A stretch of DNA of 64,000 bases from Bacteroidia bacterium (GTDB lineage: Bacteria > Bacteroidota > Bacteroidia > AKYH767-A > OLB10): contig JAXLTL010000001.1 of the NCBI GenBank assembly GCA_046330075.1, positions 930,341-994,340 on the forward strand, given 5' to 3'. The position numbers were made by a program, and so were the translations under genes. Within the stretch, counting starts at the first letter, position 1. Each line of letters starts with the position of its first letter. Shown here piece after piece: positions 381 to 16,956 of the stretch. The notes under the pieces are model-generated. The model was not told where the DNA came from and did not search any database. It was given only the letters and a program-made list of their open reading frames with translations.

Positions 381-3074
381 ATGAATATGCGCTATATCAT
401 CACGGTATTGCTTGTCCTTTTTTTATCCGGACCATCCGGTTTCGCACAACAATATTTAAAAAACCGCCCCGACTCCGTTCGCTCCTTCCGTCAATTACAA
501 AGAGATTTTTACGAATGGAAAAAAGAAAAAAATATCAGCAAAATCCGTGGATGGAAATCCTTCAAACGTTTCGAACAGGAAGCACAAATGCATACCAACG
601 GGCATGGCGAGCAGGATGGTGTAGAAGCCTATCTCAACGCTATGATTCAGGCAGCAGCGGAAAAATCTTCAGCACGCTCTACCCTCGCGAGTGCGCCCTG
701 GTTTCCGGTGGGTCCTTATACCCTGCCCAACAACCTCACCGGCTACATGACGAATGGAATGGGGCGCGTGAACTGCATCGCTTTCGACCCGGTTAATCCT
801 GCGGTATTTTATATCGGTGTTGGCCAGGGCGGATTATGGAAAACAACCAACAACGGAATAAGCTATACCGCCCTCACCGATAATCTCCCTATCACCCGCA
901 TTTCAGATATTGCCATCGACCCCACAAACACAAATACACTCTACATTTCGCTCTGTGATTTTGAATACGTAGGCACCAGTCTGTTTACCAATGGACGGAA
1001 AAGAAACACACATTACGGACTCGGTGTTTACAAATCTACCGACGGCGGACTCACCTGGGCACCTACCGGATTAAGCTTCCAGTTGTCGAACGGTGATGCA
1101 TCACTGATCCGGAAAATTATTGTTGATCCTGCCAACAGTAACAACGTTGTTGCCTGTGGAGTAAGTGGCATGTACAAATCCCTGAATGGCGGAACAACAT
1201 TTACACAAATCAATGATTCACTATACTGGGATATGCTGCAGGATCCGGCAAACCCCAATGTACTATATGCTGCAACCGGATGGATCATGGTTGCCGGCAT
1301 AGGCAGTGCCAATATCTTCAAGTCAACCGACTTCGGCTCTACATGGACGTTATTAAACACCGGCATTCCGCCAACCGGTTCCGTACAACGCGTTAAACTG
1401 GCCCAATCGCACAGCAACCCTTCAATTCTCTATGCATTAGGTGTTGACACACAAGGTGGCTCCTATGCGGTATACAAATCAACCGACAGTGGAGTAACAT
1501 GGACCACTACTTTTTCGGGCATGAATATTCTGGGTTATGATGATGTCACCTCCCCTGGTGGCCAGGGCAACTACGATCTCGGATTAGCAGTAGATCCACA
1601 GAACCCTGACCGGCTGATTGCCGGCGGTGTCAATCTCTGGGTGTCGGACGACGGTGGTATTAATTTTAATCCTGCCAGCCACTGGACCACCAGCTATGGC
1701 CCATCCATTCACGCCGACATCCATGATATTAAATTCCATCCATCTACCGGATACCTCTATGTATGCAACGACGGTGGAGTAAACAGAACTCAAAATCTGA
1801 TACCGGAGTCATGGGTTAACCTGAACCTGGGCACCCAGTTTCAAACCATGTGGTCCAATCTCAGCAATGGAATGAACACCACCTCCTTTTATCGGATATC
1901 CTCTTCAAAAAGCAATACAGACGAACTCATTGCCGGTGCGCAGGACAACGCGACGTTTTATTTCGATGGTGCCAACTGGATGACAGTATTCGGGGGAGAT
2001 GGGATGGACAACCTGATGGACACCACACAACAGGGATATTTCATTGCTTCATCGCAATACGGAAATTTCAGTCAGACAACCGATGGCGGAAACAGTTTCA
2101 ACGGGATTTTTGCCAATGTAAACAACGAAAATGCAGAGTGGACTTCACCGATTGCAGGAGACCCTTCAGATCCGTTGACCATGTACTGCGGTTTTCAGAA
2201 TGTAACCGTTTCCTACGATGGCGGATTATTCTGGAACGCTACCACCTCCTTACCCCTGCCACCAAATTTTTATGGCAATGAACTTTCAGCACTTGCCGTA
2301 TCACCTGTGACAAGCGGCGTACTTTGGGCGGGACGAAGGGTCAGGTATGAATTCGCCAATCCGGCCGCACTCTTTCTCAGCACCAACGACGGACAGAGCT
2401 GGACCGATGTTACCTCCAACCTCCCCGACTCACTCTATTACACCTCCCTCGAAGCAGACCGGTTCAATGCTGCTGCCGCGTATGTTAGTATGGCTGGATT
2501 TGTTTCCGGCCAAAAAGTTTATAAAACCACTACTAACGGCAATGCATGGACGAACATTAGTTACAACCTGCCCAACATTCCCGTAAACTGCATCAAACAG
2601 ATTCCCGGAAAACAGGATTTACTCGCCGCTACTGACATCGGCATCTATCTGCTTCCTGCAGGCAGCACCAGCTGGATTAATGTCAGCACCGGACTTCCCA
2701 ACGTCATTGTAACTGACATTGAATTCAACATCACCCGCAACAAAGTATTCATCTCCACCTTCGGGCGGGGCATCTGGTCAACGGACCTCAGCCTGCTCAC
2801 CGGACTCACCCATCCCGAACAGGTGTTGCTGGATTTCCGCTTAACACCCACACTCAACAACGGTCATTTCAGCATCACCATAAATGAAGCTGTTACCACA
2901 CCCGCTTCACTGGAAATACTTGACGTTAGCGGAAAATGTATCGACAACCGATCACTCAGCAAGGGAACAACTGAAATTGGATTAAGCCTGCCCGGAGGCA
3001 CCTACTTCGCCCGACTCCGGAGTGAAAAGAAGTTAGGTGTAGCACGATTTATTGTTACCGATCCGGGTTTCTGA
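381..3074 (+). CDS. secreted BNR/Asp-box repeat protein (sortilin/GH74-like beta-propeller) with a T9SS C-terminal sorting domain
   Basis: Signal peptide MNMRYIITVLLVLFLSGPSGFAQ. Multiple S-x-D-x-G-x-T-W motifs (STDGGLTW, STDFGSTW, STDSGVTW, TNDGQSW). C-terminal ~80 aa resemble a Por secretion tail. Confidence 0.8.
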   Translation: MNMRYIITVLLVLFLSGPSGFAQQYLKNRPDSVRSFRQLQRDFYEWKKEKNISKIRGWKSFKRFEQEAQMHTNGHGEQDGVEAYLNAMIQAAAEKSSARSTLASAPWFPVGPYTLPNNLTGYMTNGMGRVNCIAFDPVNPAVFYIGVGQGGLWKTTNNGISYTALTDNLPITRISDIAIDPTNTNTLYISLCDFEYVGTSLFTNGRKRNTHYGLGVYKSTDGGLTWAPTGLSFQLSNGDASLIRKIIVDPANSNNVVACGVSGMYKSLNGGTTFTQINDSLYWDMLQDPANPNVLYAATGWIMVAGIGSANIFKSTDFGSTWTLLNTGIPPTGSVQRVKLAQSHSNPSILYALGVDTQGGSYAVYKSTDSGVTWTTTFSGMNILGYDDVTSPGGQGNYDLGLAVDPQNPDRLIAGGVNLWVSDDGGINFNPASHWTTSYGPSIHADIHDIKFHPSTGYLYVCNDGGVNRTQNLIPESWVNLNLGTQFQTMWSNLSNGMNTTSFYRISSSKSNTDELIAGAQDNATFYFDGANWMTVFGGDGMDNLMDTTQQGYFIASSQYGNFSQTTDGGNSFNGIFANVNNENAEWTSPIAGDPSDPLTMYCGFQNVTVSYDGGLFWNATTSLPLPPNFYGNELSALAVSPVTSGVLWAGRRVRYEFANPAALFLSTNDGQSWTDVTSNLPDSLYYTSLEADRFNAAAAYVSMAGFVSGQKVYKTTTNGNAWTNISYNLPNIPVNCIKQIPGKQDLLAATDIGIYLLPAGSTSWINVSTGLPNVIVTDIEFNITRNKVFISTFGRGIWSTDLSLLTGLTHPEQVLLDFRLTPTLNNGHFSITINEAVTTPASLEILDVSGKCIDNRSLSKGTTEIGLSLPGGTYFARLRSEKKLGVARFIVTDPGF

Positions 3075-3190
3075 GGCCAAGCTCTAGTCCAACCCCCTCT
3101 TTTACAATACGCTATATAAAATAATAGAGAGCAAACCTCCTTATTTTAGAATATTTATCTGATTTGCTACCTTTGCAGCGCTCAAAAGCA

Positions 3191-3265
<75 letters not shown>

Positions 3266-3266
3266 A

Positions 3267-3300
3267 AAAGCCCTCCTATGCTTTAGCATCGGAGGGCTTT
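3267..3300 (+). terminator. hairpin immediately 3' of the tRNA (AAAGCCCTCC...GGAGGGCTTT)
   Basis: A 10-bp perfect stem followed by a T-containing tract. Its 3' arm is also the start of the downstream repeat unit. Confidence 0.4.
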
Positions 3301-3866
3301 GTCATTAAAAACATAGAGCGCTTGCATGCCCCGAAAGTTTTCGGGGAAGAGGTCACCGGGCGCTCTTCGCTCCGGATTGCTATCCACTAATTCTGCCCTC
3401 TGATCCTAAACTTATAGAGGGCTTTGTCATTAAAAACATAGAGCGCTTGCATGCCCCGAAAGTTTTCGGGGAAGAGGTCACCGGGCGCTCTTCGCTCCGA
3501 ATCACCATTCACTAATTCTGCCCTCCGATCCTAATCTTATTGAGGGCTTTGTCATTTATATAACATGTTTTACGTTTATTTCATTTACTCAGCACGTTTA
3601 GATCGATATTATGTCGGTTACACATCTGACCTTCAGAAGAGATTGAATGATCATAATTGTGGAATTTCTGCATTTACATCTAAGTCTAAGGACTGGGTAC
3701 TGGTGTATCAGGAAGCTTTTGAATCTCGAGAAGAGGCCGCTGAAAGAGAACGAATCATTAAAAAGAAAAAAAGCAGGAAGTATCTCGAATGGCTCATTGC
3801 AGGGAATAATTCATAGAGCGCTTGCATGCCCCGAAAGCTTTCGGGGAAGAGGTCACCCCTTCCGGC
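3294..3866 (+). repeat. tandem tRNA-Ala-derived repeats: two complete 125-bp units (3294-3418, 3419-3543) and a third unit split by the GIY-YIG ORF
   Basis: Each unit reads GGGCTTTGTCATT..CATAGAGCGCTTGCATG + hairpin CCCCGAAAG(T/C)TTTCGGGG + AAGAGGTCACCGG..ATTCTGCC. This mimics the D-stem, anticodon stem, T-arm and acceptor 3' of the adjacent tRNA-Ala, with the anticodon loop replaced by a new hairpin. Confidence 0.65.
3565..3816 (+). CDS. GIY-YIG nuclease family protein (URI domain, COG2827/UPF0213-like)
   Basis: N-terminal FYVYFIYSARLDRYYVGYTSDLQKRLNDHN matches the GIY-x10-YIG motif plus the conserved R and N. It is 83 aa. The ORF starts and stops exactly at repeat-unit junctions. Confidence 0.75.
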   Translation: MFYVYFIYSARLDRYYVGYTSDLQKRLNDHNCGISAFTSKSKDWVLVYQEAFESREEAAERERIIKKKKSRKYLEWLIAGNNS

Positions 3867-3987
3867 AGGCAGGCAGGATTTGTTACATTCTACATCGCCT
3901 CCTACAACCACTGATTTGCACGGTTGGTTATGATGGGTTATGTTCAAACATGACTGTTCATTTGAGGTGATTTTTTATCTTTGAAAG

Positions 3988-5511
3988 ATGGGTTACTTCC
4001 GCTACTTGTTTTTATTGATGATTTTGCTGCCGGGATCAGCAACAGCACAGTATAATGGTAATTACTGGTGTTTTGGGGATAGTGTTATGATAAATTGGAG
4101 TAACCCTAACAACCCTGTAATTGGGGCTTCTTCTTTTGATTTCCGAAACGGATCATCAAGTATTGCTGATTCTAACGGCATACTTTTATATACAGGTTAT
4201 AATTACAATGTTCAACCAGTCAGACCCTCGGTTTGGAACAAATATAATAATGATATAAATGATTCAATACGGATCAAAGGTGGCCTTTGGTATCATGCCA
4301 GTTTATTTGTACCTGATCCTGGAAATGATTCAATTATTTATTTATTTACAATTGGTGTTACTCAAGCTGAACAGTACGGTCTATACTACTCCAAAATCAA
4401 CTATAAAGCGAACAATGATTCAGGAATAGTCATTCAGAAAAATGTGCAGCTCAATAATTTTCCTGCCTTTGACGCACTCATGTCCGTGCGGCATGGTAAC
4501 GGTAGAGACTGGTGGGTGATATTTCAGAGATATACAACCAGCCTTACCCCATTTAATTCATTTTACCTTTTTCTTGTTTCGCCATCTGGTATTTCAGGTC
4601 CTGCAATTCAGAATATTGGTTCATTACGTAAAACCGGCGGCGGGCATCTGATTTTTAATAGTGATGGTACTCAATTTGTGCAATGCTCTTGGTTAGGTAT
4701 GATCGAACTCTACAATTTCGATCGCTGTACAGGTACCATCACTTCCACCATCCCTATTGAACAAGAACCATCTGTAGCTCCCTACCCACATTGGTATTCC
4801 AGCTGTGCTTTTTCACCAGATGATTCGAAATTATATGTAGCAGACTATTCGCAAACCACTTCACCATCTTATTTATGGCAATATGATTTATTAGCTACGA
4901 ATGTACCTGCGAGCAAAACCTTGATTGATTCATTTGTTGATCCTGATATGGGAATAGCGCAACTTCGCTTGGCCCCCGATAATAAAATATATTTATCAGC
5001 CTCAGATGAAGGTTTTCCATGGCCTTACCCAGATACCATCACCGCCTACACCACCATCAACAACAACCTCAGTGTTATCAACCACCCGGATAGCCTGGGT
5101 GCTGCCTGCGATTTTCAACCCTTCAGCTTTTCCCTCGGTGGTGCCCGCACCTACTACGGCCTTCCCAACAACCCCGATTACGAGTTGGGGGCTTGGGTAG
5201 GTAGTCCTTGTGATACGCTAACTGTGGGCCTCACCCCCGGCCCATCAGAGGAGAAGGGAGCATGGATGCAGGCATGGTATAACCACGAATGGAACATGAT
5301 TCACGTCAACGCGGCGCAGTTGAAAGGGAAGAAAGGTGTGTTGCGGTTGTTTGATATCGAAGGAAGAATCGTTTTCGAAAAACCGGCGGAGGTGGTGGCG
5401 GGTGGGTATTATACGACGGAGATTTATATGAATGAGTTGTCAAGTGGGGTTTATGTCGTCAACCTGGTCACGGATCGGGAGACGTTGTCGTTTAAGACTA
5501 GTAAATACTAG
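3988..5511 (+). CDS. secreted T9SS cargo protein, paralog A of a 3-member family (conserved N-terminal WCFGDS motif plus T9SS CTD)
   Basis: Signal peptide MGYFRYLFLLMILLPGSATAQ. The C-terminal ~115 aa are about 90% nucleotide-identical to 9287..10837 and 39123..40664, ending GVYVVNLVTDRETLSFKTSKY. Confidence 0.75.
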   Translation: MGYFRYLFLLMILLPGSATAQYNGNYWCFGDSVMINWSNPNNPVIGASSFDFRNGSSSIADSNGILLYTGYNYNVQPVRPSVWNKYNNDINDSIRIKGGLWYHASLFVPDPGNDSIIYLFTIGVTQAEQYGLYYSKINYKANNDSGIVIQKNVQLNNFPAFDALMSVRHGNGRDWWVIFQRYTTSLTPFNSFYLFLVSPSGISGPAIQNIGSLRKTGGGHLIFNSDGTQFVQCSWLGMIELYNFDRCTGTITSTIPIEQEPSVAPYPHWYSSCAFSPDDSKLYVADYSQTTSPSYLWQYDLLATNVPASKTLIDSFVDPDMGIAQLRLAPDNKIYLSASDEGFPWPYPDTITAYTTINNNLSVINHPDSLGAACDFQPFSFSLGGARTYYGLPNNPDYELGAWVGSPCDTLTVGLTPGPSEEKGAWMQAWYNHEWNMIHVNAAQLKGKKGVLRLFDIEGRIVFEKPAEVVAGGYYTTEIYMNELSSGVYVVNLVTDRETLSFKTSKY

Positions 5512-5536
5512 TTACAAGAGCATTTGTTGGTTTAAC

Positions 5537-5556
5537 CCTGCCTGCCGGCAGGCAGG
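5537..5556 (+). promoter_or_regulatory. perfect 20-bp palindrome CCTGCCTGCCGGCAGGCAGG in the 3' UTR shared by the CTD genes
   Basis: The identical palindrome and the following CGCAGCGAAAACGGCGACTCGCAACG recur at 11867-11912. A variant sits at 3871-3890. There is no T-tract, so it is not a canonical terminator. Confidence 0.35.
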
Positions 5557-5583
5557 CGCAGCGAAAACGGCGACTCGCAACGT

Positions 5584-7035
5584 CCCGATAGCTATCGCAT
5601 TGGCGTTAAGCTAAGCCGATTACTTTTCAACTCAAACTTCTTGATAATTAGCTTGGTATTAGAATAAAAAAGGCTTCCCCTTTGCATAATTATGTTGCGC
5701 TAACAAACTCTAACATGCGCACGGGAAGCCAAAACAAATATATGCAACATGACTTGAATTCAAAGTTAAAGTTGCTAGGTATCACAAAACTGGAGAGAGA
5801 ATTGGGTTTTAGAAAACGACGTACAGGCAAGATCAGATTGCAAGCACTTGTTGAAAGTTTTTATAAGTCATGTTTTCGGAGTAAATTTTCATTGTCAAGC
5901 TGGGCTTTTCAGTTGTCGGCTCAGGAAGGACTCTGCATTAGCAAGCAAGCTGTCTTTTACAGGGTCAATAGTTCATTAACTAAATTATTGGAAAGACTGC
6001 TCAACAATGCACTCGTTGCACAGATAAAGCCGAGCCAGACTTCACAGAATAGCAGATTTAAAAATGTATATATCCAGGATGGAATGGCAATTAAGTTGCC
6101 GGACAATTTAAGTACAAAATACAAAGGAAATTACTCGCGCGGCAAGATAAAAGCGGTAGCGAAATTGCAAGTAATTTATAATGCCAGTAAACGAAATTTT
6201 AAATCTATTCTGCTAACTCCTTTCACAAGAAATGACCAGACAGCCTCATCCGACATATTGCCGTTACTAAAGAAGGGAGATTTGGTCATACGCGATATGG
6301 GATATTTTGTAATGCCCACCTTTAGACAAATCGTACAACGTAAGGCAGACTTCATCAGTCGATATAAAAAAGATGTGGCCATAATTGATTTAAAGAGTAA
6401 GCAGGCGGTGTCAATAATACAATTATTGAGAGGAAAAACGGTTTTGAAACGAAAAGTTATTCTTGGTGCAAAAGAACAGCTTGAATGCACGTTGATAGCG
6501 GTTAAGGTAGCTCCATGTTTGGCGGAGGCAAGACGAAGAAAAGCCATGAAAGATCGTGATAAGCGACTAAGGTATACCCAGGATAAAAAAATATTGCTTG
6601 GATGGGATATTTATCTGAGTTCTTCACATGATCTGGACGTAAAAGACGTTCAAGATTATTATGCAGCTCGTTGGCAAATAGAGATCATTTTTAAGTCTTG
6701 GAAAAGTGGTTTGAGTTTAGAGAAGTCCATTCCGGGTCAACTGAATTATGATCACTTAGCGGTAACAGTTATCTATCTTCATTTGTTACTGATTGTACTT
6801 ATGATTACGCCCATATACAACACCTTGAAATCACTTATACGTAGGCCCGAAGATAGAGTAAGCCTCTTGAAATCAGTTAAAATCATCTTAATGATGATCA
6901 TTAACAATCGAATACAATTTGACTTAAATGTTGCCTCTAAATTGGCCAACTTTACTCTTTATGAAGTTAGGAACCGGGACACGATGGCAGATAAACTGAG
7001 GATTTTAGCTTAACGCTAATGCGATAGCTATCGGG
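5584..7035 (+). mobile_element. IS4/IS5-superfamily insertion sequence (~1.45 kb) with 28-bp terminal inverted repeats
   Basis: IRL 5584-5611 CCCGATAGCTATCGCATTGGCGTTAAGC and IRR 7008-7035 are reverse complements with 1 mismatch. They flank a single DDE transposase ORF. No clear target-site duplication. Confidence 0.8.
5682..7013 (+). CDS. IS4-like DDE transposase
   Basis: Motif DYYAARWQIEIIFKSWK fits the Y(2)R(3)E(6)K IS4 signature. Candidate catalytic D residues lie in YIQDGMAIKLPD and LVIRDMGYF. The stop codon lies inside IRR. Confidence 0.8.
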   Translation: MHNYVALTNSNMRTGSQNKYMQHDLNSKLKLLGITKLERELGFRKRRTGKIRLQALVESFYKSCFRSKFSLSSWAFQLSAQEGLCISKQAVFYRVNSSLTKLLERLLNNALVAQIKPSQTSQNSRFKNVYIQDGMAIKLPDNLSTKYKGNYSRGKIKAVAKLQVIYNASKRNFKSILLTPFTRNDQTASSDILPLLKKGDLVIRDMGYFVMPTFRQIVQRKADFISRYKKDVAIIDLKSKQAVSIIQLLRGKTVLKRKVILGAKEQLECTLIAVKVAPCLAEARRRKAMKDRDKRLRYTQDKKILLGWDIYLSSSHDLDVKDVQDYYAARWQIEIIFKSWKSGLSLEKSIPGQLNYDHLAVTVIYLHLLLIVLMITPIYNTLKSLIRRPEDRVSLLKSVKIILMMIINNRIQFDLNVASKLANFTLYEVRNRDTMADKLRILA

Positions 7036-7179
7036 AGCAGAGAAATCTTCATAACATTAAAAACATTTTAACCATTTAACACTTTAACTCCCGCCTTACG
7101 GGATTAACATTTATAATACTTATAACCTTCCCCCTACGGTAACCTCAGTTTAATTCAGGATTTTTCTTAAATTTGATTG

Positions 7180-9279
7180 ATGCTCCTCCGCTCCAACACC
7201 TTCACCTCCTCCGGCGGCTATTTGCTGGCACCCTACAATACCGTTCACAAATTTGCGGCTATCGTGCTGGATGATGTGGAAAGGGTGGTGATTGGGGATA
7301 GTTCGCTGGATGGGTCGGTGAGTGCGAATTTGTTTGAAAACTCAAATTTTGGAATCAGAGCAAATAAATCGAGTTTTGAACTTTACAATAATACCTTCAA
7401 TAACATCACTGAATTGGATGGTTCGGCACTGCCAGTTGATCGAAATGGGACTTGCGTATTTAATCGTTCTGCCAGTGATTATAATGACCGTAAACTCATT
7501 GTAGGAAATCTGGATTATACATTGACTTCTCCAGCTGTGTCCCGAAGAAATAGTTTCACAAACTCACGTACAGCAATTTTCAGTATTGGCGAGTCAAACA
7601 TAACCATCTATAACAATGAGTTTGGTTCTCCTGTCAGCAACCAGAATTTCATTGAACAGAATTGTGTTTCAATTTTCAACAATCCAAACAAATCCATTAA
7701 CATTAGCAGGGAAAATGATTTCTACGATTACAGGCTTGGTATTTTGATCAGAGGTCTTAACGATCAAACCCAAATAGACATAAGTAAGAATAGTTTTTAC
7801 AATTGTCGTCTGACCGCACCCGTAGCCAATTTCGACGGTACCGCCATTTTAGTAACATCCGTTCTTCCTGTCAACCGTATGCTGGATGCCCGGATCCACA
7901 ATAATCAAATCGGCATTTTGGATGGCTCGAACTATTACCAGCCCCGAATAGGTATCCATATTGCCAATACGGGTGGGGTGAAGATTGAAGAGAACGAAAT
8001 CCGATTTAATCTTACTTCAGTTCCCGGTGACCTATATAGGGGCATCAGATTAGAATCTGCTCCGGAATGTGTAGTATCAACTAATACAATTGAAAACACA
8101 GGGACTGTATCTTTGATCGGCAATCAATTGGTAGGAATACGGACGGATCAGTCATCTATGCCAATAATAAAATGCAACACGTTGGTCAGATTAGGACAAT
8201 CGTTGCAGTTTGTGAATAGTAACGATTATGTATCATTGATCTCAAATTTTTTAAATGGTTATGATTTAGGGGTTCAGTTAGGTGATGGTGGCGCAGGTAC
8301 TTTCATTGGAGACTTTCAAGGTGCGCCTGGCATTGGATTAGATAATCTCTGGATGGACAGTCAGAATGACCGGGTGGAAGGATTTTTATCGAATTTCTCA
8401 CCTATGCCATGGTACCATCACGGGTCTGAAATCTTCAGCAACAATGGAGCCCCGGTTAGATCCGACAATTCAAGTTCAGGTTCGATTGATCCAATTGGAA
8501 ACCAGCCAGCATATCTTGATCAACCTTGCGGCGATGATAACTCAACGGAAAGGAGTACGGGTTTTGGCTCTATTGCTGCCGATACTGCCCGCTATGAAGG
8601 CCCATATGCGGATCAATTTCTATATACTCGAAAAGCTACCGCATTCTCCTATCTGATGGCTGATACCGGGAGAATTACCATGGGACGCAGTGATGATCAG
8701 GTATTTGAAAAACTTATCAATGATCTTTCCATTTCGAATATTGGAAAGTTCGATGCAATTATTAAACTATCACAAATCGACAGATGGAATGAAGCCAATG
8801 AAATATTGAGTACAATCAACGATACCAATAATCATGAATACTATTTGAAGCAGGTGCTTTCAATTCTAATTGAAACAGCAATAGAAGAACGTGAACTTAA
8901 TAGCAGCGACACCAACTTACTTTTTGAAATTGCCCATTTGCATTCAATGGAAGGAGGTCTCGCAGTGAAAATCGCAAGGGTGGCATTGCAACTGGAGTTG
9001 GAAGACATTGGCAGCGGCAGCAGATTGTATTCACAACTAGAAGACAAATCTTTGCCGGAAATAACGCTCTGGCCGAATCCGGTACGCAGCACAATAAATA
9101 TTAACCGGCACGAAACTTTCAGGTATCAGATTTATGATGCAGCAATGCGATTGGTTTTAAGTGGTGAAAAGAAGGATGGGATGATTAATGTGGAGGTTCT
9201 TGCGAATGGGTATTATTCTCTAATTGTCACAGACAAAGAAAGAAGGTATAAGCCACTTGGGTTTTGCAAAATAGATTAA
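7180..9279 (+). pseudogene. right-handed parallel beta-helix repeat protein with a T9SS CTD that lacks a signal peptide; probably a 5'-truncated cargo gene
   Basis: N/G-rich imperfect repeats typical of a pectin-lyase-like beta-helix. C-terminal ...YYSLIVTDKERRYKPLGFCKID matches a Por secretion tail. An in-frame TGA sits at 7174-7176 and the N-terminus MLLRSNTFTSSGG is not a signal peptide. The gene lies 145 bp downstream of the IS4 element. Confidence 0.55.
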
Positions 9280-9286
9280 TGAAACC

Positions 9287-10837
9287 ATGTTTAGAATACA
9301 AAAAATAATTTATATAATCGGGGCCCTAATCTATATTAGCCTGAAAACTCATGCGCAGTTTACGAATAACAACTGGTGTTTCGGTGATAGTGCTGGTGTT
9401 CGTTTTGATTCGGCGATAAGTATATTTCGATGTGGAACTGGCTTCACCAGAGGGACAGCAACAATTTCTGATATCAATGGGGATTTGATTTTCTATGGGG
9501 CAACCAGTAACACGACAAATGAATTTACCGGTCAAATTAAACAAGGTAAATTGTTTAATAAATACCATACTGAACTAATAAATGGTGACACTTTAGTTGG
9601 TGGCAATTGGTATCATTGTATGCTTGTTTTACCAAAATCAATAATCGACAGTACATTTTATGTATTTGTGGCTGGGGTGGTAGTACCTGACACCGGTTTA
9701 TGGTATAGCATTGTGGATATGAAATTACAGGGGGGAGTGGGTGCAGTGGTACAAAAAAATGTCAGATTTGAAACGCACCCTGTTCAGGATATGCTCACTG
9801 CCGTGAAACATGGCAATGGCAAGGATTGGTGGTTGGTAACCAGACGATGGCGTTCAAGTGGTGCCGGAATCGGGAATGATGAATTCTGGGTTTATCTTGT
9901 AGATTCAATTGGAATTCATCCATTAGCTGTACAGCATATTGGAACCTCAAATTATAATGGAGCCGGTGATATGAGTTTCAATTCTACAGGTGACAAATTG
10001 GCCTTGTGTGGCTGGGGTAATTATTTGGGTGTTTTCGACTTCGATCGATGCACCGGCCAAATCTCAAATGAAACCCTGATAGAACCGAACACCCAACTGG
10101 GCAACCACCCATACCGTTGGTACACCAGTGTTGTTTTTTCACCAAGTGGGCAATTTTTATATGTGAATTCATCGCAGGAAGCATATCAGACAAGTGGTAA
10201 ACTATATCAGTTTGATTTAACTGCCACAAATATTGCTACTAGCAGGGTATTAATTGACTCTTTTCCTACAAATGCAGAGAATCATGGAATGGAATTAGGA
10301 CCAGATGGGAAAATTTATATTAGTGCACAGGAATTTGGAGGGTGCACTTACCCATGGCCTAGTGGTTGTTTTAGCACTATAAATTCAAACCTCAGTGTAA
10401 TTAACTCTCCAGATAGCTTGGGGTCTGCATCAAACTTCCAACTATTTGCTCTTAACTTAGGAGGCTATCGTGCTTATAGGGGTCTCCCCAACAACCCCGA
10501 TTACGAGCTGGGGGCATGGGTGGGCAGTCCTTGTGATACGTTAACTGTGGGCCTCACCCCCGGCCCCTCTCCAGAGGAGAGGGGAGCCTGGCTGCAGGCA
10601 TGGTATAATCACGAATGGAATATGATCCATGTGAATGCGGCGCAGTTGAAAGGAAAGAAAGGAATGTTGAGGTTAATGGATATAGAAGGCAGAATCGTTT
10701 TCGAAAAACCGGCGGCGGTGTTGGCAGGAGGGTATTATACGACGGAGATTTACATGAATGAGTTGTCAAGTGGGGTTTATGTTGTCAACCTGGTTACGGA
10801 TAGAGAGACGTTGTCGTTTAAAACCAGTAAATTCTAG
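9287..10837 (+). CDS. secreted T9SS cargo protein, paralog B
   Basis: Signal peptide followed by NNNWCFGDSAGVRFD. Homologous along its whole length to 39123..40664(-), with a conserved 3' end ...VNLVTDRETLSFKTSKF. Confidence 0.75.
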   Translation: MFRIQKIIYIIGALIYISLKTHAQFTNNNWCFGDSAGVRFDSAISIFRCGTGFTRGTATISDINGDLIFYGATSNTTNEFTGQIKQGKLFNKYHTELINGDTLVGGNWYHCMLVLPKSIIDSTFYVFVAGVVVPDTGLWYSIVDMKLQGGVGAVVQKNVRFETHPVQDMLTAVKHGNGKDWWLVTRRWRSSGAGIGNDEFWVYLVDSIGIHPLAVQHIGTSNYNGAGDMSFNSTGDKLALCGWGNYLGVFDFDRCTGQISNETLIEPNTQLGNHPYRWYTSVVFSPSGQFLYVNSSQEAYQTSGKLYQFDLTATNIATSRVLIDSFPTNAENHGMELGPDGKIYISAQEFGGCTYPWPSGCFSTINSNLSVINSPDSLGSASNFQLFALNLGGYRAYRGLPNNPDYELGAWVGSPCDTLTVGLTPGPSPEERGAWLQAWYNHEWNMIHVNAAQLKGKKGMLRLMDIEGRIVFEKPAAVLAGGYYTTEIYMNELSSGVYVVNLVTDRETLSFKTSKF

Positions 10838-11277
10838 TTGAATTCAGAATTCAGGATGCAGAATTCAGAATTGCCCAACCTCTCGGGACACTTTTTTGAT
10901 TTTGCGATCAAACACCCAATAGAATCAAAACCTACAGGGTTGTTTTAGTTAATGAAGTCAGAGAAAAAAACGGCCCTCAGCACCGCTGGTTTTTGAAGCG
11001 CAGTGAACGGTGGAATAGACGGAGGGAAGCGGCGAATGGAATGAGCCGATCACCCGACGGCCCGCCGTACACAAGCGAAAAAAATTCCGCGATAGCGGAA
11101 AGGCGGTGGCGGTTCCTGAGCCTGTCGAAGGATGCAGGCCTTGATCTTTTTGGGTTACCCTGAAGCAGAACGAAGTACGCTTCAGGGTGACTGGGGGTTT
11201 AAGGGGACAGCGTCCCCTTGGGATGTTTAAGTATGGAGAATGCTGAATGAAATGGACAGATTTGCCGGATTGGGAGA

Positions 11278-11345
11278 ATGGGGTTTATGTTGTCAACCTG
11301 GTCACGGACAGGGAGACGTTGTCGTTTAAGACTAGTAAATTCTAG
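11278..11345 (+). pseudogene. 3'-terminal fragment of a T9SS CTD coding sequence, unit 1 copy
   Basis: Encodes ...GVYVVNLVTDRETLSFKTSKF* with no upstream gene body. About 94% identical to the 3' end of 9287..10837. Confidence 0.5.
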
Positions 11346-11775
11346 TCGAATTCAGAATTCAAGATGCAGAATTCAGAATTGCCCCCGCCCCGGAATACAA
11401 TTTTTAATTTTGCTGATTAAATAACCAATAGCAAACAAAAACCGACAGGCATTTTAATAGCAATAGAAACAAGAGAAAAAAATCGGCCCTCAGCATATCC
11501 GGTTTTTTGAGTGAAGGAAGTGGCGGAAAAGTTCGAGGGTACCCCGATAGCTATCGGGGCCGAATGAAATGAGGAGATCCCCCCTGAGAACCCGCCACGG
11601 ACAAGCTCAAAAAATTCCGCGAAAGCGGAAAGGATATGGTGCAGGCCTTGATCTTTTTGGTTACTTTTTCTATCAAGAGAAAAAGTGACCAGGGGTTTAA
11701 GGGGACAGCGTCCCCTTGGGATGTTTAAGTATGGAGAATGCTGAATGAAATGGACAGATTTGCCGGATTGGGAGA

Positions 11776-11843
11776 ATGGGGTTTATGTTGTCAACCTGGT
11801 CACGGACAGGGAGACGTTGTCGTTTAAGACCGGGAAATTCTAG
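11776..11843 (+). pseudogene. 3'-terminal fragment of a T9SS CTD coding sequence, unit 2 copy
   Basis: Same fragment ending ...SFKTGKF*. It is followed by the palindrome and 3' UTR sequence that also follows gene 3988..5511. Confidence 0.5.
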
Positions 11844-12016
11844 TTACAGCAGCATTTGTTGGTTTAAACCTGCCTGCCGGCAGGCAGGCGCAGCGAAAAC
11901 GGCGACTCGCAACGAACGCAACGGCACGGGGGAAAACATTTATATCCCTGAGGCTTCGCTCCGGGCGCAAGCGCTTCGCAACTCTGTAACTCAGTAGCTC
12001 TGTAACTCTGTAACTC

Positions 12017-13291
12017 CTACAACCCCGTAGGAACCCATTCCCCCTGATTGTAAATACCAATGGGCTTGCCTTTAAACGTGGTGCCGGTGAAAGGTGTATT
12101 GGACGACTTCGACTGAATATGCTCTTTACCGAAGGTCCACGCTGTAGCCGGATGATAAACAGTGAGGTTGGCGATAGCGCCTTTCGTGATGGAGGGGACA
12201 TCTATACCCAATATACGGCGCGGATTTTTCACCAGTACTTCGTACATCCGTTCCCGTGAGAGGCTTCCCTTAAAGGCTGCATTGAGTACACCGTAAAAAC
12301 TCTCCAGTGATATCATGCCATAGGCTGCGTAGTCAAACTCCACATCCTTCGACTCCAGATCCTCCGGCGAATGGTCGCTGCAGATCACATCGATGGTTCC
12401 GTCGATGACGGCTTCTCTGAGAGCAAGTACATCATCAGCCGTACGCAGTGGTGGCTTCACTTTATACATACTGCTGAATCCTTCCAGGGAGGTATCATCC
12501 AGCAGCAGATGATATACATAAACTTCCGCCGTCACCGGTACTCCTTCTTTCTTCGCTTCACGGATTCTGTTCACTGCATCACGGGTGCTGATACCGGATA
12601 TGTGTATTGGCACTCCTGCATATTTCACCAGACTGAGATCACGTTGTACCGCAATCTCTTCGGCAATGGCAGGTGCTCCCTTGAACCCGAGTAATGTGGT
12701 GAACGGGCTTTCTGTCGCCTGCAGCTTTGCTGTTAAGCCAGGATCATCAGCATATGAAATAACAGGCGCTCCCAGATTGCCCGCATACTGCAGCGCTCTC
12801 AACATGACTCCGCTGTTTCCAATGGCCCGCTTTACGTCCGTGAATGCTACTGCTCCGGCAAGTTTCATATCGTACATTCCCGCAAGCTCTTTTCCCTCGA
12901 GCTGTTCTGTTAATGCTCCACCCGGAAATACATCCACCGGATATCCCGTGGCTCTGGCTTTGATAAAACTAACATCGGCATGCGTTTGTATAGCTGGATG
13001 GGTGGAAGGCATCACTACAACTCCGGTAAAACCTCCTTGTGCAGCGGCCTTTTGACCCGAACGTATCGTTTCTTTTTGCTCATCGCCGGGTTCTCTGAAA
13101 AATGCACGTAAATCAAGCCATCCGGGTGATACTTCCACCCCGGCTTCTTCAACAACCACCGTTTCTGCCGGTGCTGTGAGCCCGTTTCCTGTTTCCTGAA
13201 TGATCCCGTTGTTTACAAGAACATCCGTGTTTTTACCGTGGAGTGATGAGGACGGATCGTTGATCCGTACGTTTTTCAGGAGAAGGTTCAT
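12017..13291 (-). CDS. dihydroorotase-like cyclic amidohydrolase
   Basis: Amidohydrolase fold motifs: VSPGWLDLRAFFREPG, DVICSDHSPE, and a metal-binding HxH-type region. Likely start is MNLLLKNVRI. The start overlaps the upstream stop by ATGA. Confidence 0.7.
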   Translation of the reverse strand: MNLLLKNVRINDPSSSLHGKNTDVLVNNGIIQETGNGLTAPAETVVVEEAGVEVSPGWLDLRAFFREPGDEQKETIRSGQKAAAQGGFTGVVVMPSTHPAIQTHADVSFIKARATGYPVDVFPGGALTEQLEGKELAGMYDMKLAGAVAFTDVKRAIGNSGVMLRALQYAGNLGAPVISYADDPGLTAKLQATESPFTTLLGFKGAPAIAEEIAVQRDLSLVKYAGVPIHISGISTRDAVNRIREAKKEGVPVTAEVYVYHLLLDDTSLEGFSSMYKVKPPLRTADDVLALREAVIDGTIDVICSDHSPEDLESKDVEFDYAAYGMISLESFYGVLNAAFKGSLSRERMYEVLVKNPRRILGIDVPSITKGAIANLTVYHPATAWTFGKEHIQSKSSNTPFTGTTFKGKPIGIYNQGEWVPTGL

Positions 13292-15429
13292 GCGGTTTTC
13301 CAGTATCGGATGAGTAATATTTCTATGAGCAGAAAGAGTAAAGCCAGTGTGACAGCATACTTCCATAAGGGTGTTCCCTGATGCAGTGTTTGCAGCGCCT
13401 TCGTAAGATCAGGAATACCGGCCTGCATTAAATCCCAGTTCTTGTATCCGGCCTGACCGGCGGCAGCACTGATAACAGCTTCGTCCTGGAATTTCATGAC
13501 CGATTCCCGCCGGTTGTAGTTGTATGAGAGGATGGCCACCCGCTGATTACCCCGCTTAAGTTCATATTGTCCGGCTGCCGGTACCTGATCTCCTGCCGAA
13601 ATGAGCAACCCTCCGTTCACTTGCTTTACGGAAGGAATAATATCAGTCTTAAGCCGTTCATTGACCAGATGGAACGTCTCGTCACCGGTAAGAGCCGGCA
13701 GATTAAGTAATAACGGTTGCGCATGTCCGAGAATAGACGAAATCGCGATCGGCCGGGTGCTGAGCAATGCCATTCGGTATAACAGCGGTGCAAAGATCGC
13801 ATGGCGGGAAAGGTTGCTGAATCCGCCTTCCATCGGAACAGTGAAGAGATAAATGGCTCCTTTACCGGATGGATATTGTTCGAGCAGACTTCCACCACCC
13901 TGTAATTTCATGAGTGATTGTCCCGCACTGCCGTTGGTGTTGATAAGATCAAAATGACGTGCAACGGATGGGTAGTCAATGCGACCATCGCGCATCTGTT
14001 TTGTTTCAAACACTTCGTTAAAGACCGGATGCTGCACATCTACAGAAATGACCTTATCAGCAGATGCGTTGATTCCACCCATTTGATCAATACCTAATGC
14101 AGCAAAGGCGGCGTTTAAGCTGGGGTCAGCAATCGCGGAATCAGGGAATATGCACAGTGTTCCTCCGGCTTCGGTGAATTTCCTGAGCTCCTGCGCCAGC
14201 CCACTGGAAATCTCACGAATATCTTCCAGCAATACCATCTCCGTATTTTGCAGTGCGCTAAAGTCGACGGTGCCGGTTGTTGCTCTTTTCAATACAAAGG
14301 ATGGATCCTTGCCAAAGAGGGCTTCAAGGTATTTCAGCGGTGTGCCGTCCCCTATTATCAATAAGTCAGTTTTTTCACGCACTTCAAAGGAAGTGTAGTA
14401 GCTGTCATCAAAAGTGATGGGGTGATCGGTAAGTTGAACTTCCAGTCGCTGCCAGCCGGGAGCCGACACGGTAAAACTGAAGGTGACTGTGGATGATTGT
14501 CCGGCAGGAACCAGCACACTCGACACGGCCTTCTGTGCGTCATTGAGTAATAATCTGACCGGCACATTTTCCGCATCCTTTTCGCCAGTATTCAATACCT
14601 TCACTGTAATTTCGGAAGGTTGGTTCAGTTGTACTACCGGACCCGACAACCAGCAGGAGTCGATCAGCACATTTGGCGTTTCCTGCAAAGGCAAGGCTAC
14701 AAAGGATACGTGGATGGCAGAATCGGGTGTGGAGCCAGCTATTTTAAATGTACTCTCCTGAAAATCGCTGATGATAAACGACCGGAAGCCGTCAGATCCG
14801 TTAGCGTTCAAGGCTTCCTTCTGACGCAGCATTACTTCATCCAGCGTTCTGCTCACCGGTGAGAATTGTATCCTGCTAAGCTCCTCCATAAAATCATCCT
14901 TACTTAGCATACGCTGCTGCACTGCAGAAAATTCGTTCGTGAGCAACTGGAATCGGGTACTGGCCGGATAAGCGCCAGCAATCTCCTTTGCTTTGCGCCG
15001 GGCCACTTCCAGTAAAACACCTTCGTTGCCAACTGCATCCATACTAAAGGAGTTATCGACATAAATACCGACGGTACCTTGCTGTACCTGAGCGGCTGCA
15101 TGACCAGCCGGAATATAAGGCTGCGCAAAAGCCAGTACGATGAAGGCAACAGCGAGTAACCGGGAGCAGAGAATGAGCAGATGTTTCAGACGGGAAATTC
15201 GGGTCGTTTCCTCCTTCAGCTCGGTGAGAAATTTCACATTGGTGAAGAGTATTTTCTTGTACCGGCGGAAATTAAAGAGGTGAATGATGACCGGAATGGC
15301 CAGCAATGAAAGGGCGAAGAGATAATGGGGAGCGATAAACCTGATCACCGTGGGCGAATGTTTTGCAAAGGTAATAAATAGAAGGTCGTGTAGCAGCAGA
15401 AACGCAACAGTCGCTTTATTATTTCCCAT
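13288..15429 (-). CDS. BatA N-terminal-domain (aerotolerance-related) membrane protein, large extracytoplasmic form
   Basis: N-terminus HDLLFITFAKHSPTVIRFIAPHYLFALSLLAIPVIIHLF..RRYKK resembles the BatA_N double-TM segment. About 700 aa. Translationally coupled to the downstream amidohydrolase. Confidence 0.55.
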   Translation of the reverse strand: MGNNKATVAFLLLHDLLFITFAKHSPTVIRFIAPHYLFALSLLAIPVIIHLFNFRRYKKILFTNVKFLTELKEETTRISRLKHLLILCSRLLAVAFIVLAFAQPYIPAGHAAAQVQQGTVGIYVDNSFSMDAVGNEGVLLEVARRKAKEIAGAYPASTRFQLLTNEFSAVQQRMLSKDDFMEELSRIQFSPVSRTLDEVMLRQKEALNANGSDGFRSFIISDFQESTFKIAGSTPDSAIHVSFVALPLQETPNVLIDSCWLSGPVVQLNQPSEITVKVLNTGEKDAENVPVRLLLNDAQKAVSSVLVPAGQSSTVTFSFTVSAPGWQRLEVQLTDHPITFDDSYYTSFEVREKTDLLIIGDGTPLKYLEALFGKDPSFVLKRATTGTVDFSALQNTEMVLLEDIREISSGLAQELRKFTEAGGTLCIFPDSAIADPSLNAAFAALGIDQMGGINASADKVISVDVQHPVFNEVFETKQMRDGRIDYPSVARHFDLINTNGSAGQSLMKLQGGGSLLEQYPSGKGAIYLFTVPMEGGFSNLSRHAIFAPLLYRMALLSTRPIAISSILGHAQPLLLNLPALTGDETFHLVNERLKTDIIPSVKQVNGGLLISAGDQVPAAGQYELKRGNQRVAILSYNYNRRESVMKFQDEAVISAAAGQAGYKNWDLMQAGIPDLTKALQTLHQGTPLWKYAVTLALLFLLIEILLIRYWKTA

Positions 15430-15603: not shown

Positions 15604-16956
15604 ATGCCCAGGATCTCCACTAAAGACAAAGACAGAAAGATCTTTGTACTCGATACCTCTGCTATCCTTTTTGATCACAACGCCTTTTTTAATTTTAAGG
15701 AGCATGATGTAGCTATTCCCATTACCGTACTCGAGGAAATTGACCGGTTTAAGAAAGGAAATGACGTGATCAACTTTGAAGCACGTGAATTCATCCGGGC
15801 GATTGACAAGTTATCGGCCAGTTATTCCTTGCAGGACTGGATTCCGCTCAATGGTCCTACCAAGGGCAAATTCCGCGTGCTGATGCATGAAAAAAGCAGC
15901 ACCATCGACGCCGATCAGGTATTTGGCGAGCGTAAAGCGGATCACCGAATCATCAATGCGGCAATGAGCATACAGGAAGAATATCCGCACCGCAAGGTTG
16001 TGCTGGTGAGCAAGGATATCAACCTGCGTCTCAAAGCCCGTTCCCTCAACCTCGCTTCAGAAGATTATGAAACCGGAAAGGTTAAGGATATAAAGGATCT
16101 CTACACCGGTAAATCAGTCATTGAGAACGCACCGAAAAAAGCAATAGACAAGTTATATCAGGATGGCTGGTGCGCCTGGAAGGATATCGTAAAAGAACGC
16201 CCGATTAAAAATCATTATTTTATACTCCGCAGTAAAACAGAGTCGGGCTCCGCACTCGCCTGGTATAATCCGCTGAGCGATCGCATCGAGCGAATCCAGA
16301 AAGAACCGGCAGCAGGTATACGACCCAGAAATGCTGAACAGGCTTTTGCTATCCATTCGGTACTGAATCCAAATATTCTGCTCAGTTCTATTATGGGCAT
16401 CGCCGGGTCGGGAAAGACTTTACTGGCATTGGCTTCTGCTCTCGAGCAGAAGAGTAAATTCAGGCAGATCTATCTGGCAAGGCCCATCGTACCGCTCAGC
16501 AACAAAGACATCGGCTACTTGCCGGGAGATATTAAATCGAAGATTAACCCCTACATGGAGCCTTTATGGGATAACCTGAAGTTCATCCAGAGTCAATACA
16601 AGGAAACTGATAAGGAATTTCAGAAAATCAATGATATGGTGGAGAATGAAAAACTGCATATTACGCCGCTGGCCTATATCCGCGGACGCAGTTTGAGCAA
16701 TATCTGCTTTATCATTGATGAAGCACAGAATCTCACGCCTCATGAAGTAAAAACGATAATCACCAGAGCCGGAGAAGGCACTAAAATTATTTTCACAGGA
16801 GATATCTTTCAGATCGATACTCCGTATCTCGATTCACACAGCAACGGACTCAGCTCCCTCATTGACAAAATGAAAAATCAGGAGCTTTACTCCCACATCA
16901 CGCTTGAAAAAGGTGAACGCAGTGACCTGGCGAATCTGGCAGGGCATCTGCTTTAA
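15604..16956 (+). CDS. PhoH-like ATPase with an N-terminal PIN domain (YlaK-type)
   Basis: PIN-like N-terminus (FVLDTSAIL....ITVLEEID). Walker A GIAGSGKT and Walker B FIIDEAQN of the PhoH family. Confidence 0.8.
   Translation: MPRISTKDKDRKIFVLDTSAILFDHNAFFNFKEHDVAIPITVLEEIDRFKKGNDVINFEAREFIRAIDKLSASYSLQDWIPLNGPTKGKFRVLMHEKSSTIDADQVFGERKADHRIINAAMSIQEEYPHRKVVLVSKDINLRLKARSLNLASEDYETGKVKDIKDLYTGKSVIENAPKKAIDKLYQDGWCAWKDIVKERPIKNHYFILRSKTESGSALAWYNPLSDRIERIQKEPAAGIRPRNAEQAFAIHSVLNPNILLSSIMGIAGSGKTLLALASALEQKSKFRQIYLARPIVPLSNKDIGYLPGDIKSKINPYMEPLWDNLKFIQSQYKETDKEFQKINDMVENEKLHITPLAYIRGRSLSNICFIIDEAQNLTPHEVKTIITRAGEGTKIIFTGDIFQIDTPYLDSHSNGLSSLIDKMKNQELYSHITLEKGERSDLANLAGHLL

Follow-up and report, generated by a model that had tools for sequence, protein, structure and literature searches.

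An insertion sequence (IS) of IS231-like type has, with high probability, inserted into the 18-bp palindrome TCCCGATAGCTATCGGGA in the stretch of 64,000 nucleotides of Bacteroidia bacterium DNA that was analyzed in this study (the window), and the solitary palindrome CCCCGATAGCTATCGGGG located elsewhere in the window would be another, IS-free copy of that target. The evidence came from the boundaries of the IS, the direct-repeat flanks of its relatives, flanks that differ between identical copies of an IS, and a distribution of the palindrome that was independent of the IS. The features concerned are listed in Table 1.

Table 1. Features of the window discussed in the text; positions count from its first nucleotide.
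Feature	Position	Strand	Evidence
Related 18-bp hairpin CCCCGAAAGTTTTCGGGG inside tRNA-Ala-like fragment, 125-bp unit 1	3329..3346	.	sequence
Second copy of CCCCGAAAGTTTTCGGGG, 125-bp unit 2	3454..3471	.	sequence
Perfect palindrome CCCCGAAAGCTTTCGGGG of related type, 13 nt beyond the GIY-YIG reading frame	3829..3846	.	sequence
Left target arm TCC, outside the putative duplication; with 7034-7036 rebuilds the target TCCCGATAGCTATCGGGA	5583..5585	.	inverted repeat reaches T/A
Left copy of the putative 12-bp target-site duplication, CGATAGCTATCG	5586..5597	.	sequence
IS proper as delimited here, 1424 bp, IS4 family, IS231-like, termini 5'-CAT...ATG-3'	5598..7021	+	IS231-subgroup end signature; core found in relatives
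Left terminal inverted-repeat core CATTGGCGTTAAGCTAA	5598..5614	+	sequence
Transposase gene, 432 aa (alternative call of 443 aa from TTG at 5682)	5715..7013	+	DDE_Tnp_1, transpos_IS4_1
Right terminal inverted-repeat core, reverse complement CATTAGCGTTAAGCTAA, one mismatch to left core	7005..7021	-	sequence
Right copy of the putative 12-bp target-site duplication, CGATAGCTATCG	7022..7033	.	sequence
Right target arm GGA	7034..7036	.	inverted repeat; arms in clade
Two tandem units of about 500 bp (cassette units 1 and 2)	10839..11846	+	palindrome in unit 2 only
Solo 18-bp perfect palindrome CCCCGATAGCTATCGGGG	11542..11559	.	exact match, single occurrence in window

An earlier note on this DNA was right that the palindrome exists. 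It is unique in the window and lies 9 nt to the right of the interval 11533-11550 that had been assigned to it. Its 16-mer core had one exact match in the window, compared with 0.02 expected from shuffled sequences, and the inner 12-mer CGATAGCTATCG, which is its own reverse complement, occurred at exactly three sites (5586, 7022, and inside the palindrome), compared with 0.13 expected. Alignment of unit 1 (10839-11346) with unit 2 (11347-11846) revealed a gap of 15 columns at the palindrome, where AAAAGTTCGAGGGTA pairs with AATAGACGGAGGGAA of unit 1, rather than the insertion of about 30 bp described earlier. The 15 nt preceding the palindrome are homologous between the units, and the 18-mer occupies the place of approximately 3 nt in unit 1. 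A dispersed element, T/C-CCCGATAGCTATCGGG-A/G, is represented at 11542 by its C..G variant, which IS copies elsewhere (L094, L004, and others) also have as their target. For the 18-mer as single-stranded DNA, a hairpin with a stem of 7 bp and a loop of 4 nt was predicted at -6.3 to -7.4 kcal/mol, with -7.4 kcal/mol for the copy at 11542.

The window is rich in GC-clamped hairpins (nine CCCG-N-CGGG sites, compared with 3.7 expected), which could favor the view that the palindrome is an ordinary local hairpin, such as a terminator stem, and matches the flanks of the IS by coincidence. Given the expectation of 0.02 for a 16-nt identity and the recurrence of the same 18-mer in hundreds of contigs that are unrelated to one another, as well as at many IS junctions, the probability of such a coincidence appeared negligible. 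Separately, a terminator reading was rejected as no T-run follows the palindrome. In a search of Rfam over positions 3000-12300, a tRNA alone passed and no family was returned for the hairpins.

The inverted repeat that encloses the IS (5583-5614 and 7005-7036) spans 32 nt with 97% identity, and it places CCCGATAGCTATCG on the 5' side and CGATAGCTATCGGG on the 3' side of the transposase gene. The transposase matched the Pfam family DDE_Tnp_1 (PF01609; E = 1.7e-22) and the NCBIfam model transpos_IS4_1 (156.8 bits, with a cut-off of 115). It is encoded by one uninterrupted reading frame (5682/5715-7013) without a frameshift, and its translation includes YAARWQIEIIFKSWK, which corresponds to the YREK motif of region C1, defined for the IS4 family as Y-(2)-R-(3)-E-(6)-K (PMC2266710). 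Elements of this family generate target duplications of about 10 bp, or about one helix turn, while the IS231 subgroup is characterized by the end signature CAT-------AA--TAA--- and by direct repeats of 10-12 bp (PMC2266710, Table 1). Read from CAT, CATTGGCGTTAAGCTAA agreed with every specified position of the IS231 signature, and the repeat lengths implied in the clade were 10, 11, and 12 bp. The duplication in the window would measure 12 bp, a length that is ambiguous as the repeat is palindromic, and unambiguous duplications of 9-12 bp were found in relatives.

The IS231 subgroup is coherent in that many of its pairs exceed 50% identity, and it is almost exclusive to the Bacillus cereus group, whereas the best Bacillus matches of the window's transposase were 23-29% identical, the nearest plasmid-borne relatives were IS4 transposases of the B. 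cereus group with 26-28% identity, and the hosts of the IS relatives were Bacteroidota MAGs. The element is best named IS231-like, as a sister clade of the IS231 subgroup. Its ends also agree with the ISH8 signature (CAT, T at position 15). A blastn search of the IS against the plasmid collection returned no match, and a comparison with the B. thuringiensis plasmid relative L312 was dropped after no inverted repeats were found in the range searched. A protein identical to the transposase (P0001) is on record and was found at at least five different sites in other samples. The earlier suggestion of IS activity in this repeat-rich part of the window is therefore reasonable.

The window alone cannot fix the boundary of the IS because CGATAGCTATCG is self-complementary, so that its direct duplication is indistinguishable from an extension of the inverted repeats. 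The copy in the window is compatible with three lengths of the duplication: 12 bp, 8 bp if the IS ended in CGCAT, and 4 bp if it ended in ATCGCAT. Relatives were fetched from 185,579 species genomes, the conserved core CATTGGCGTCAAGTTAA was located in more than 60 of them, and their flanks were then read. Where these flanks were not palindromic, they formed perfect direct repeats abutting CAT/ATG and poor inverted repeats. For example, the flank TGGTTTCGCA of L012 matched at 10 of 10 positions as a direct repeat and at six of 12 as an inverted repeat, the flank CGATAACTATCG of L029 at 12/12 and 10/12, and those of L070 and L072 at 11/11 and 0/12. Perfect direct repeats were also found in L013 (TGCGACAGCA, 10/10), L030 (9/9), and L079 (10/10). 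L012 and L013 come from two long-read MAGs, share the inverted-repeat core CATAGGCGTCAAGCTAA, and both have a TTCC...GGAA context. Duplications of 4 or 8 bp were rejected, since relatives sharing the core agree beyond CAT in CG at most, and the end also falls at CAT in the distant relatives L070 and L072. The placement of the termini at CAT (5598) and ATG (7021) is based on this homology and on the signature in the literature. The palindrome had been described as the fused outer 8 bp of the two IS ends; this is arithmetically true, but with termini at CAT/ATG those bases would be flanks of the target and not part of the IS.

Variable flanks were observed among copies of a single element. Six contigs encode an identical transposase (P0003, 60% identical to that of the window), and their flank interiors were of five types (ATGCTT, AAGCAT, AGGCAT, ATGCCT, and AGGCCT) inside constant TCCCGA...TCGGGA arms. 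Similarly, L100, a copy of the window's own IS, has the left flank CGATGGCCATCG. The window IS (P0001) and the P0002 IS were found at many sites with unrelated outer flanks, and every end of both carried the arm and a palindrome half, as expected of an IS that targets REP-like palindromes. A duplication outside CCC/GGG was absent at every IS site read. Of the 69 unique IS ends in the clade, 56 carried the CCCG arm, with implied direct repeats of 10 bp (14 ends), 11 bp (five ends), and 12 bp (37 ends), and CG abutted the IS at 55. The base before CCCG was T in 48 and C in eight of the 56, which is the same bias as in the solo palindromes.

The palindrome had been considered an excision footprint, a solo-IR minimal target, or a miniature derivative of the IS. 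The notion of a target came close to the truth, while the solo inverted repeat and the miniature derivative did not hold up, as the palindrome lacks the inverted-repeat core CATTGGCGTTAAGC of the IS. A MITE or footprint would be expected to contain the terminal inverted repeats and to show a constant tip in inverted-repeat relation; instead, the palindrome is without the conserved core CATTGGCGT(T/C)AAG and holds only bases that lie outside the IS in relatives, the interiors vary with an identical transposase, and the non-palindromic flanks are direct repeats. The footprint reading appears to have reversed cause and effect: the apparent outer ends would be halves of the palindrome that were duplicated at insertion.

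It is of interest how far termini that include CCCGATAGCTATCG could explain the data, with the solo palindrome representing abutted ends, or a deletion between the 12-bp repeats, and the IS spreading its own footprint. Such termini would fit the equality of the palindrome with the joined IS flanks, and the ends of the stand-alone IS contigs L001 and L002 fall precisely at CCC/GGG, which would suit IS-borne tips as well. Nevertheless, this alternative was considered very unlikely, since copies that encode one and the same transposase differ in their flank interiors, non-palindromic flanks are direct rather than inverted repeats (L029, L012, L013, L070, and L072), no duplication was found outside the tips at any site although the IS4 family makes duplications of about 10 bp (PMC2266710), and the end signature in the literature begins at CAT (PMC2266710). 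Solo palindromes were sharply inserted into contexts that are unrelated to each other, among them microsatellites and hairpin loops, which would suit a footprint, but among the matches listed they were almost never near an IS. Identical tips, including the same 16-mer, also accompany transposases that are only 32-63% identical to that of the window; this would be natural for tips carried by the IS, and it counts against insertion into a target, which would require a palindrome conserved across distant hosts.

The distribution of the palindrome was examined in metagenome and viral contigs. In JGI metagenome contigs, at least 135 exact copies of the 16-mer were found in at least 120 stretches, where several contigs carried two to four copies each and, among the matches listed, only one stretch contained an IS-end remnant. 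This abundance without the IS, like the differing flanks of L100 and of the six P0003 copies, is what the earlier note had named as evidence against its own reading. In viral contigs of IMG/VR, the 16-mer was present in 51 stretches, compared with 0 and 1 for two composition-matched control palindromes, and other palindromes known from IS junctions were present in seven (TCCCGCACGTGCGGGA), 10 (CCCGAAAGCTTTCGGG), and 15 (TCCCGAATATTCGGGA) stretches. Among the matches listed, the positions at +/-1 were complementary in 95% of copies while complementarity was at chance level (0.20-0.35) from +/-2 outward, so the palindrome is sharply bounded. Within the 80 loci analyzed among these matches, the flanking pair was T..A in 71 and C..G in 11 of 92 solo copies, and 12 variants with one or two mismatches were found beside 92 exact copies. 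Contigs that carry the palindrome span 27-55% G+C, those of the JGI matches listed span 31-55% and have otherwise unrelated flanks, and 16-33% of the copies listed lay in long open frames, compared with 71-86% of random positions. The 18-mer is a dispersed and mostly intergenic element that exists independently of the IS, and unbroken copies were present both at 11542 and in hundreds of contigs. A literature search for CGATAGCTATCG returned an unrelated primer only, and the Bacteroidota LexA motifs (GGA-N5-TCC and CTAA-N5-TTAG) did not match the palindrome.

Several further arrangements of solo palindromes were observed. Some carried a tandem duplication of one half (e.g., TCCCGATAG x2 and AGCTATCGGG x2) or were nested in a second copy (L152 at 5679, L168 at 129, L176 at 3188, L203 at 14548, L236, L265 at 9038, L270, and L273). 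Others were located in microsatellites (L126, L156, and L148) or at the tips of terminator-like hairpins (L252 and L278). In addition, many contigs (L232, L244, L262, L277, L235, L243, L258, and L117) carry the 18-mer at a constant position within a different hairpin repeat, CCTCACCCC-T(palindrome)A-CTCTCC..GGAGAGGGG, and part of its copy number therefore stems from this composite repeat.

For the window, the preferred reading is that the IS inserted into TCCCGATAGCTATCGGGA by ordinary IS4-type cut-and-paste. Both strands of the target would have been cut between CC and CG, giving a stagger of 12 bp, and gap repair would have duplicated the central CGATAGCTATCG on both sides. Because CGATAGCTATCG is its own reverse complement, this duplication would mimic an extension of the IS inverted repeats, and joining the apparent outer ends would merely rebuild the empty target. 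A symmetric transposase complex may recognize the arms (T)CCCG...CGGG(A), and the spacing of the arms may place the two cuts 10-12 bp apart. As a family, the palindromes of the host could serve as a harmless landing pad in the manner of REP-like dispersed intergenic elements. An IS-free version of the locus would be expected to read ...GCAACGTCCCGATAGCTATCGGGAGCAGAG... / ...GGCGACTCGCAACGTCCCGATAGCTATCGGGAGCAGAGAAATC..., and not ...GCAACGT/AGCAGAG.... A P-nucleotide or hairpin-opening origin of the palindromic flanks was rejected, as it would yield site-specific palindromes and not one universal sequence.

On this reading, the copy at 11542 is a target with no IS in it, either never occupied or restored through precise excision, and both histories give the same sequence. 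Precise excision between target duplications is established for IS4-family transposons (Tn10/Tn5), which counts in favor of a past occupation that ended by slippage or annealing between the 12-bp repeats. The IS is also active and multi-copy in related populations, and half-duplicated or nested palindromes (L176, L203, L236, L265, and L270) suggest imperfect repair at such sites. Still, a former occupation of 11542 was judged unlikely: a restored site is identical to one that was never occupied, nothing in the window supports prior occupancy, and no metagenome contig was found with the IS at the flanks of the unit-2 palindrome (GTTCGAGGGTAC / GCCGAATGAAATG). For the insertion at 5598, the pattern of an empty orthologous site, GACTCGCAACG-N(0-30)-GCAGAGAAATCTTC, had no match in metagenome contigs. 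Exact-protein look-up of the flanking genes at 3988-5511 and 9287-10837 found neither on record, and the contigs reached through 12017-13366, 15604-16956, and the GIY-YIG protein all break in repeats before the IS site or the palindrome.

The flanks of some IS copies did not form matching pairs, which weighs against the preferred reading. Unequal left and right flanks were found in many short-read MAG contigs (L008, L010, L014-L019, and L024), and non-palindromic flanks that were inverted rather than direct repeats were found in L034 (11/12; 2815/4539), L071 (12/12; 2787/4279), L317 (12/12), L043, and L054. These flanks probably resulted from chimeric assembly, or from inversion or recombination between copies. 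One of these loci, L034, belongs to a long-read MAG assembly, however. Shuffled pairings were also observed: the flank GCAGATCCCCT is on the left end in L103 and, reverse-complemented, on the right end with other partners in L104 and L105, the left flank of the window is joined to a different right flank in L098 and L099, and the two flanks of L043 each form a proper direct-repeat pair in L070 and L072, respectively. Hybrid repeats are known to arise by recombination between IS copies in REP palindromes (PMC1525189). The center of the duplicated 12-mer was AGCT or AGGT/ACCT, even at the same site in different samples (L095 and L097; L104 and L105), and this may reflect sequencing error at a hairpin or real variation. 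An AGGT/ACCT center in one copy of the 12-mer was also seen among L094, L098, L099, L103, L106, and L107.

Dispersed intergenic palindromes are familiar from REPs. Classical REPs are 20-40 nt long and imperfectly palindromic, begin with a conserved GTAG head, are species-specific, and are associated with a RAYT transposase. The 18-mer is mostly intergenic and hairpin-forming as in REPs, while its length, its perfect symmetry, the absence of GTAG, and its identity across taxa are atypical. IS elements of five families, including ISRm22 of the IS4 family, insert at the symmetry axis of REP palindromes, and the broken halves of such targets have previously been confused with repeats of the IS (Tobes and Pareja, 2006; PMC1525189). 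Like ISRm22, IS1397, ISKpn1, ISPsy8, and ISPpu9/10, which are DDE elements that insert almost exclusively into a dispersed intergenic palindrome at its axis (PMC1525189), the window IS is flanked by palindrome halves and a short duplication. It differs in that the duplication of 10-12 bp covers most of the palindrome and leaves 3 bp per side outside, whereas ISRm22 makes 6-bp repeats, and in that the target is perfect, only 16-18 bp long, and without a GTAG head or a known RAYT partner. In addition, REPs are usually species-specific, while the palindrome described here is common to IS relatives (32-63% transposase identity) in very different Bacteroidota hosts.

A second comparison is with IS231A of Bacillus thuringiensis, the target consensus of which was reportedly found by Hallet et al. 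in 1994 to be the symmetric GGG(N)5CCC, in the terminal repeat of Tn4430. The window IS resembles IS231A in the CAT termini, the AA--TAA signature, the repeats of 10-12 bp, the single YREK reading frame, and a marked insertion specificity (PMC2266710). In contrast, its transposase is only 26-28% identical to the B. cereus-group elements, its host belongs to the Bacteroidota, and its symmetric arms, CCCG...CGGG, lie partly outside the duplication.

Insertion of IS into palindromes is already known; the present case is set apart by its clade, by a palindromic duplication of 12 bp, and by the very wide distribution of the 18-mer. For annotation, IS boundaries in the clade would be overcalled by 14-15 bp per side where the target is palindromic, and footprints inferred from such ends would be empty targets. 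The Bacteroidota IS231-like clade would have a very strict specificity for palindromic targets, which would make its insertion sites predictable and mostly harmless, being intergenic. A symmetric target with cuts set by CCCG arms would also be tractable for the study of target capture by transposases of the IS4/Tn5 type. Five loci (L070, L072, L043, L054, and L063; IS core CATAGCCGTCAGGYTAA) formed a second, Bacteroidales sub-clade with 11-bp duplications in a different G-rich repeat (GGGGNNGGGGGTGAGG-like), which suggests that the IS group as a whole targets dispersed repeats. Degenerate solo right ends of the IS were found near hairpins in L024 (4373-4585), where a second right end lies 212 bp downstream of the IS, and in L156 (approximately 2460-2480), where TTAACTTAACGCCATTG lies about 30 bp from a solo palindrome. 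These ends indicate repeated use and decay at such sites.

Related hairpins were also observed beside a tRNA gene of the window. After the gene for tRNA-Ala(GGC) (3191-3265) come two tandem units of 125 bp each (3292-3416 and 3417-3541) and then a small GIY-YIG reading frame (3565-3816, 83 aa, Pfam E = 1e-18), which lies between the tRNA and the last tRNA fragment. The three tRNA-Ala-like fragments of this region (3191-3857) are of the form CATAGAGCGCTTGCATG[hairpin]AAGAGGTCACC, where an 18-bp hairpin, C[CCCGAAAG(T/C)TTTCGGG]G, takes the place of GCATGC in the anticodon arm. Flanks of the AAAG..TTT type, as in CCCCGAAAGTTTTCGGGG, serve as targets of the IS relatives L007, L008, L021, and L024. 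A tblastn search with the GIY-YIG reading frame among the retrieved loci gave eight matches, six of which were 17-77 bp from such a hairpin. L332, from another organism, encodes a 61%-identical GIY-YIG protein in the same architecture as the window, with the order tRNA-Ala and terminator, GIY-YIG, and a duplicated tRNA 3' part with T[CCCGAAAGCGTTCGGG]A. The region at 3191-3857 looks like a tRNA-associated GIY-YIG cassette. The hairpins might, with low probability, be linked to a mobile cassette of this kind or to another active process. GIY-YIG relatives were not found in viral contigs. The number of 125-bp hairpin units upstream of the GIY-YIG gene varied between samples (L322-L331, matching approximately 2850-5250 of the window), with up to three hairpins in these partly truncated contigs and two in the window.

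The canonical 18-mer was also associated with tRNA genes. Among the matches listed, it was enriched about nine-fold within 100 bp of such genes (11 of 195 copies, compared with about 0.6% expected). At at least 12 loci, it was located inside a partial copy of the neighboring tRNA, where it replaced 3-7 nt, mostly in the D-loop and also in the T-loop or the anticodon loop or stem. These loci included L121, L167, L169, L172, L183, L185, L186, L202, L209, and L267, and the partial copy usually preceded the intact tRNA by 50-80 bp and followed a promoter-like TAnnTTTG motif. A nearly invariant 18-mer has been found across distantly related genomes and phage contigs, repeatedly inside disabled tRNA copies, and we know of no mechanism for its propagation. 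One tentative and rather doubtful suggestion is that (T/C)CCCGATAGCTATCGGG(A/G) and siblings such as CCCGAAAGCTTTCGGG form an actively propagated mini-element of Bacteroidota and their phages, that an enzyme, perhaps the GIY-YIG nuclease, creates or spreads it, and that the IS231-like clade evolved homing to it. Such an element would be far smaller than any known MITE or REP.

Short, GC-clamped, hairpin-forming elements that are mostly intergenic, present in many copies, and arranged in mosaics with other hairpins are also represented by REP/BIMEs and by mobile palindromes of organelles (GC clusters of yeast mitochondria and double-hairpin elements); unlike these, the window element is 18 bp long, perfect, nearly invariant, sharply bounded, and also present in viral contigs. 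Other repeats were also found in the window. The segments at 5353-5512, 10679-10838, 11187-11346, and 11685-11844 are repeated 3' ends of several secreted-protein genes that encode a type IX secretion C-terminal sorting domain, and units 1 and 2 end in two such copies that are remnants without a gene. The perfect palindrome CCTGCCTGCCGGCAGGCAGG, 20 bp in length, was found at 5537-5556 and 11869-11888, with a related copy near 3858 (3858-3880). It adjoins the 18-bp hairpins, and it was also found beside IS-occupied hairpins in other samples (right flanks of L094-L099) and in L191. The recurrence of CCTGCCTGCCGGCAGGCAGG by the 18-bp hairpins suggests a BIME-like mosaic of intergenic hairpins.
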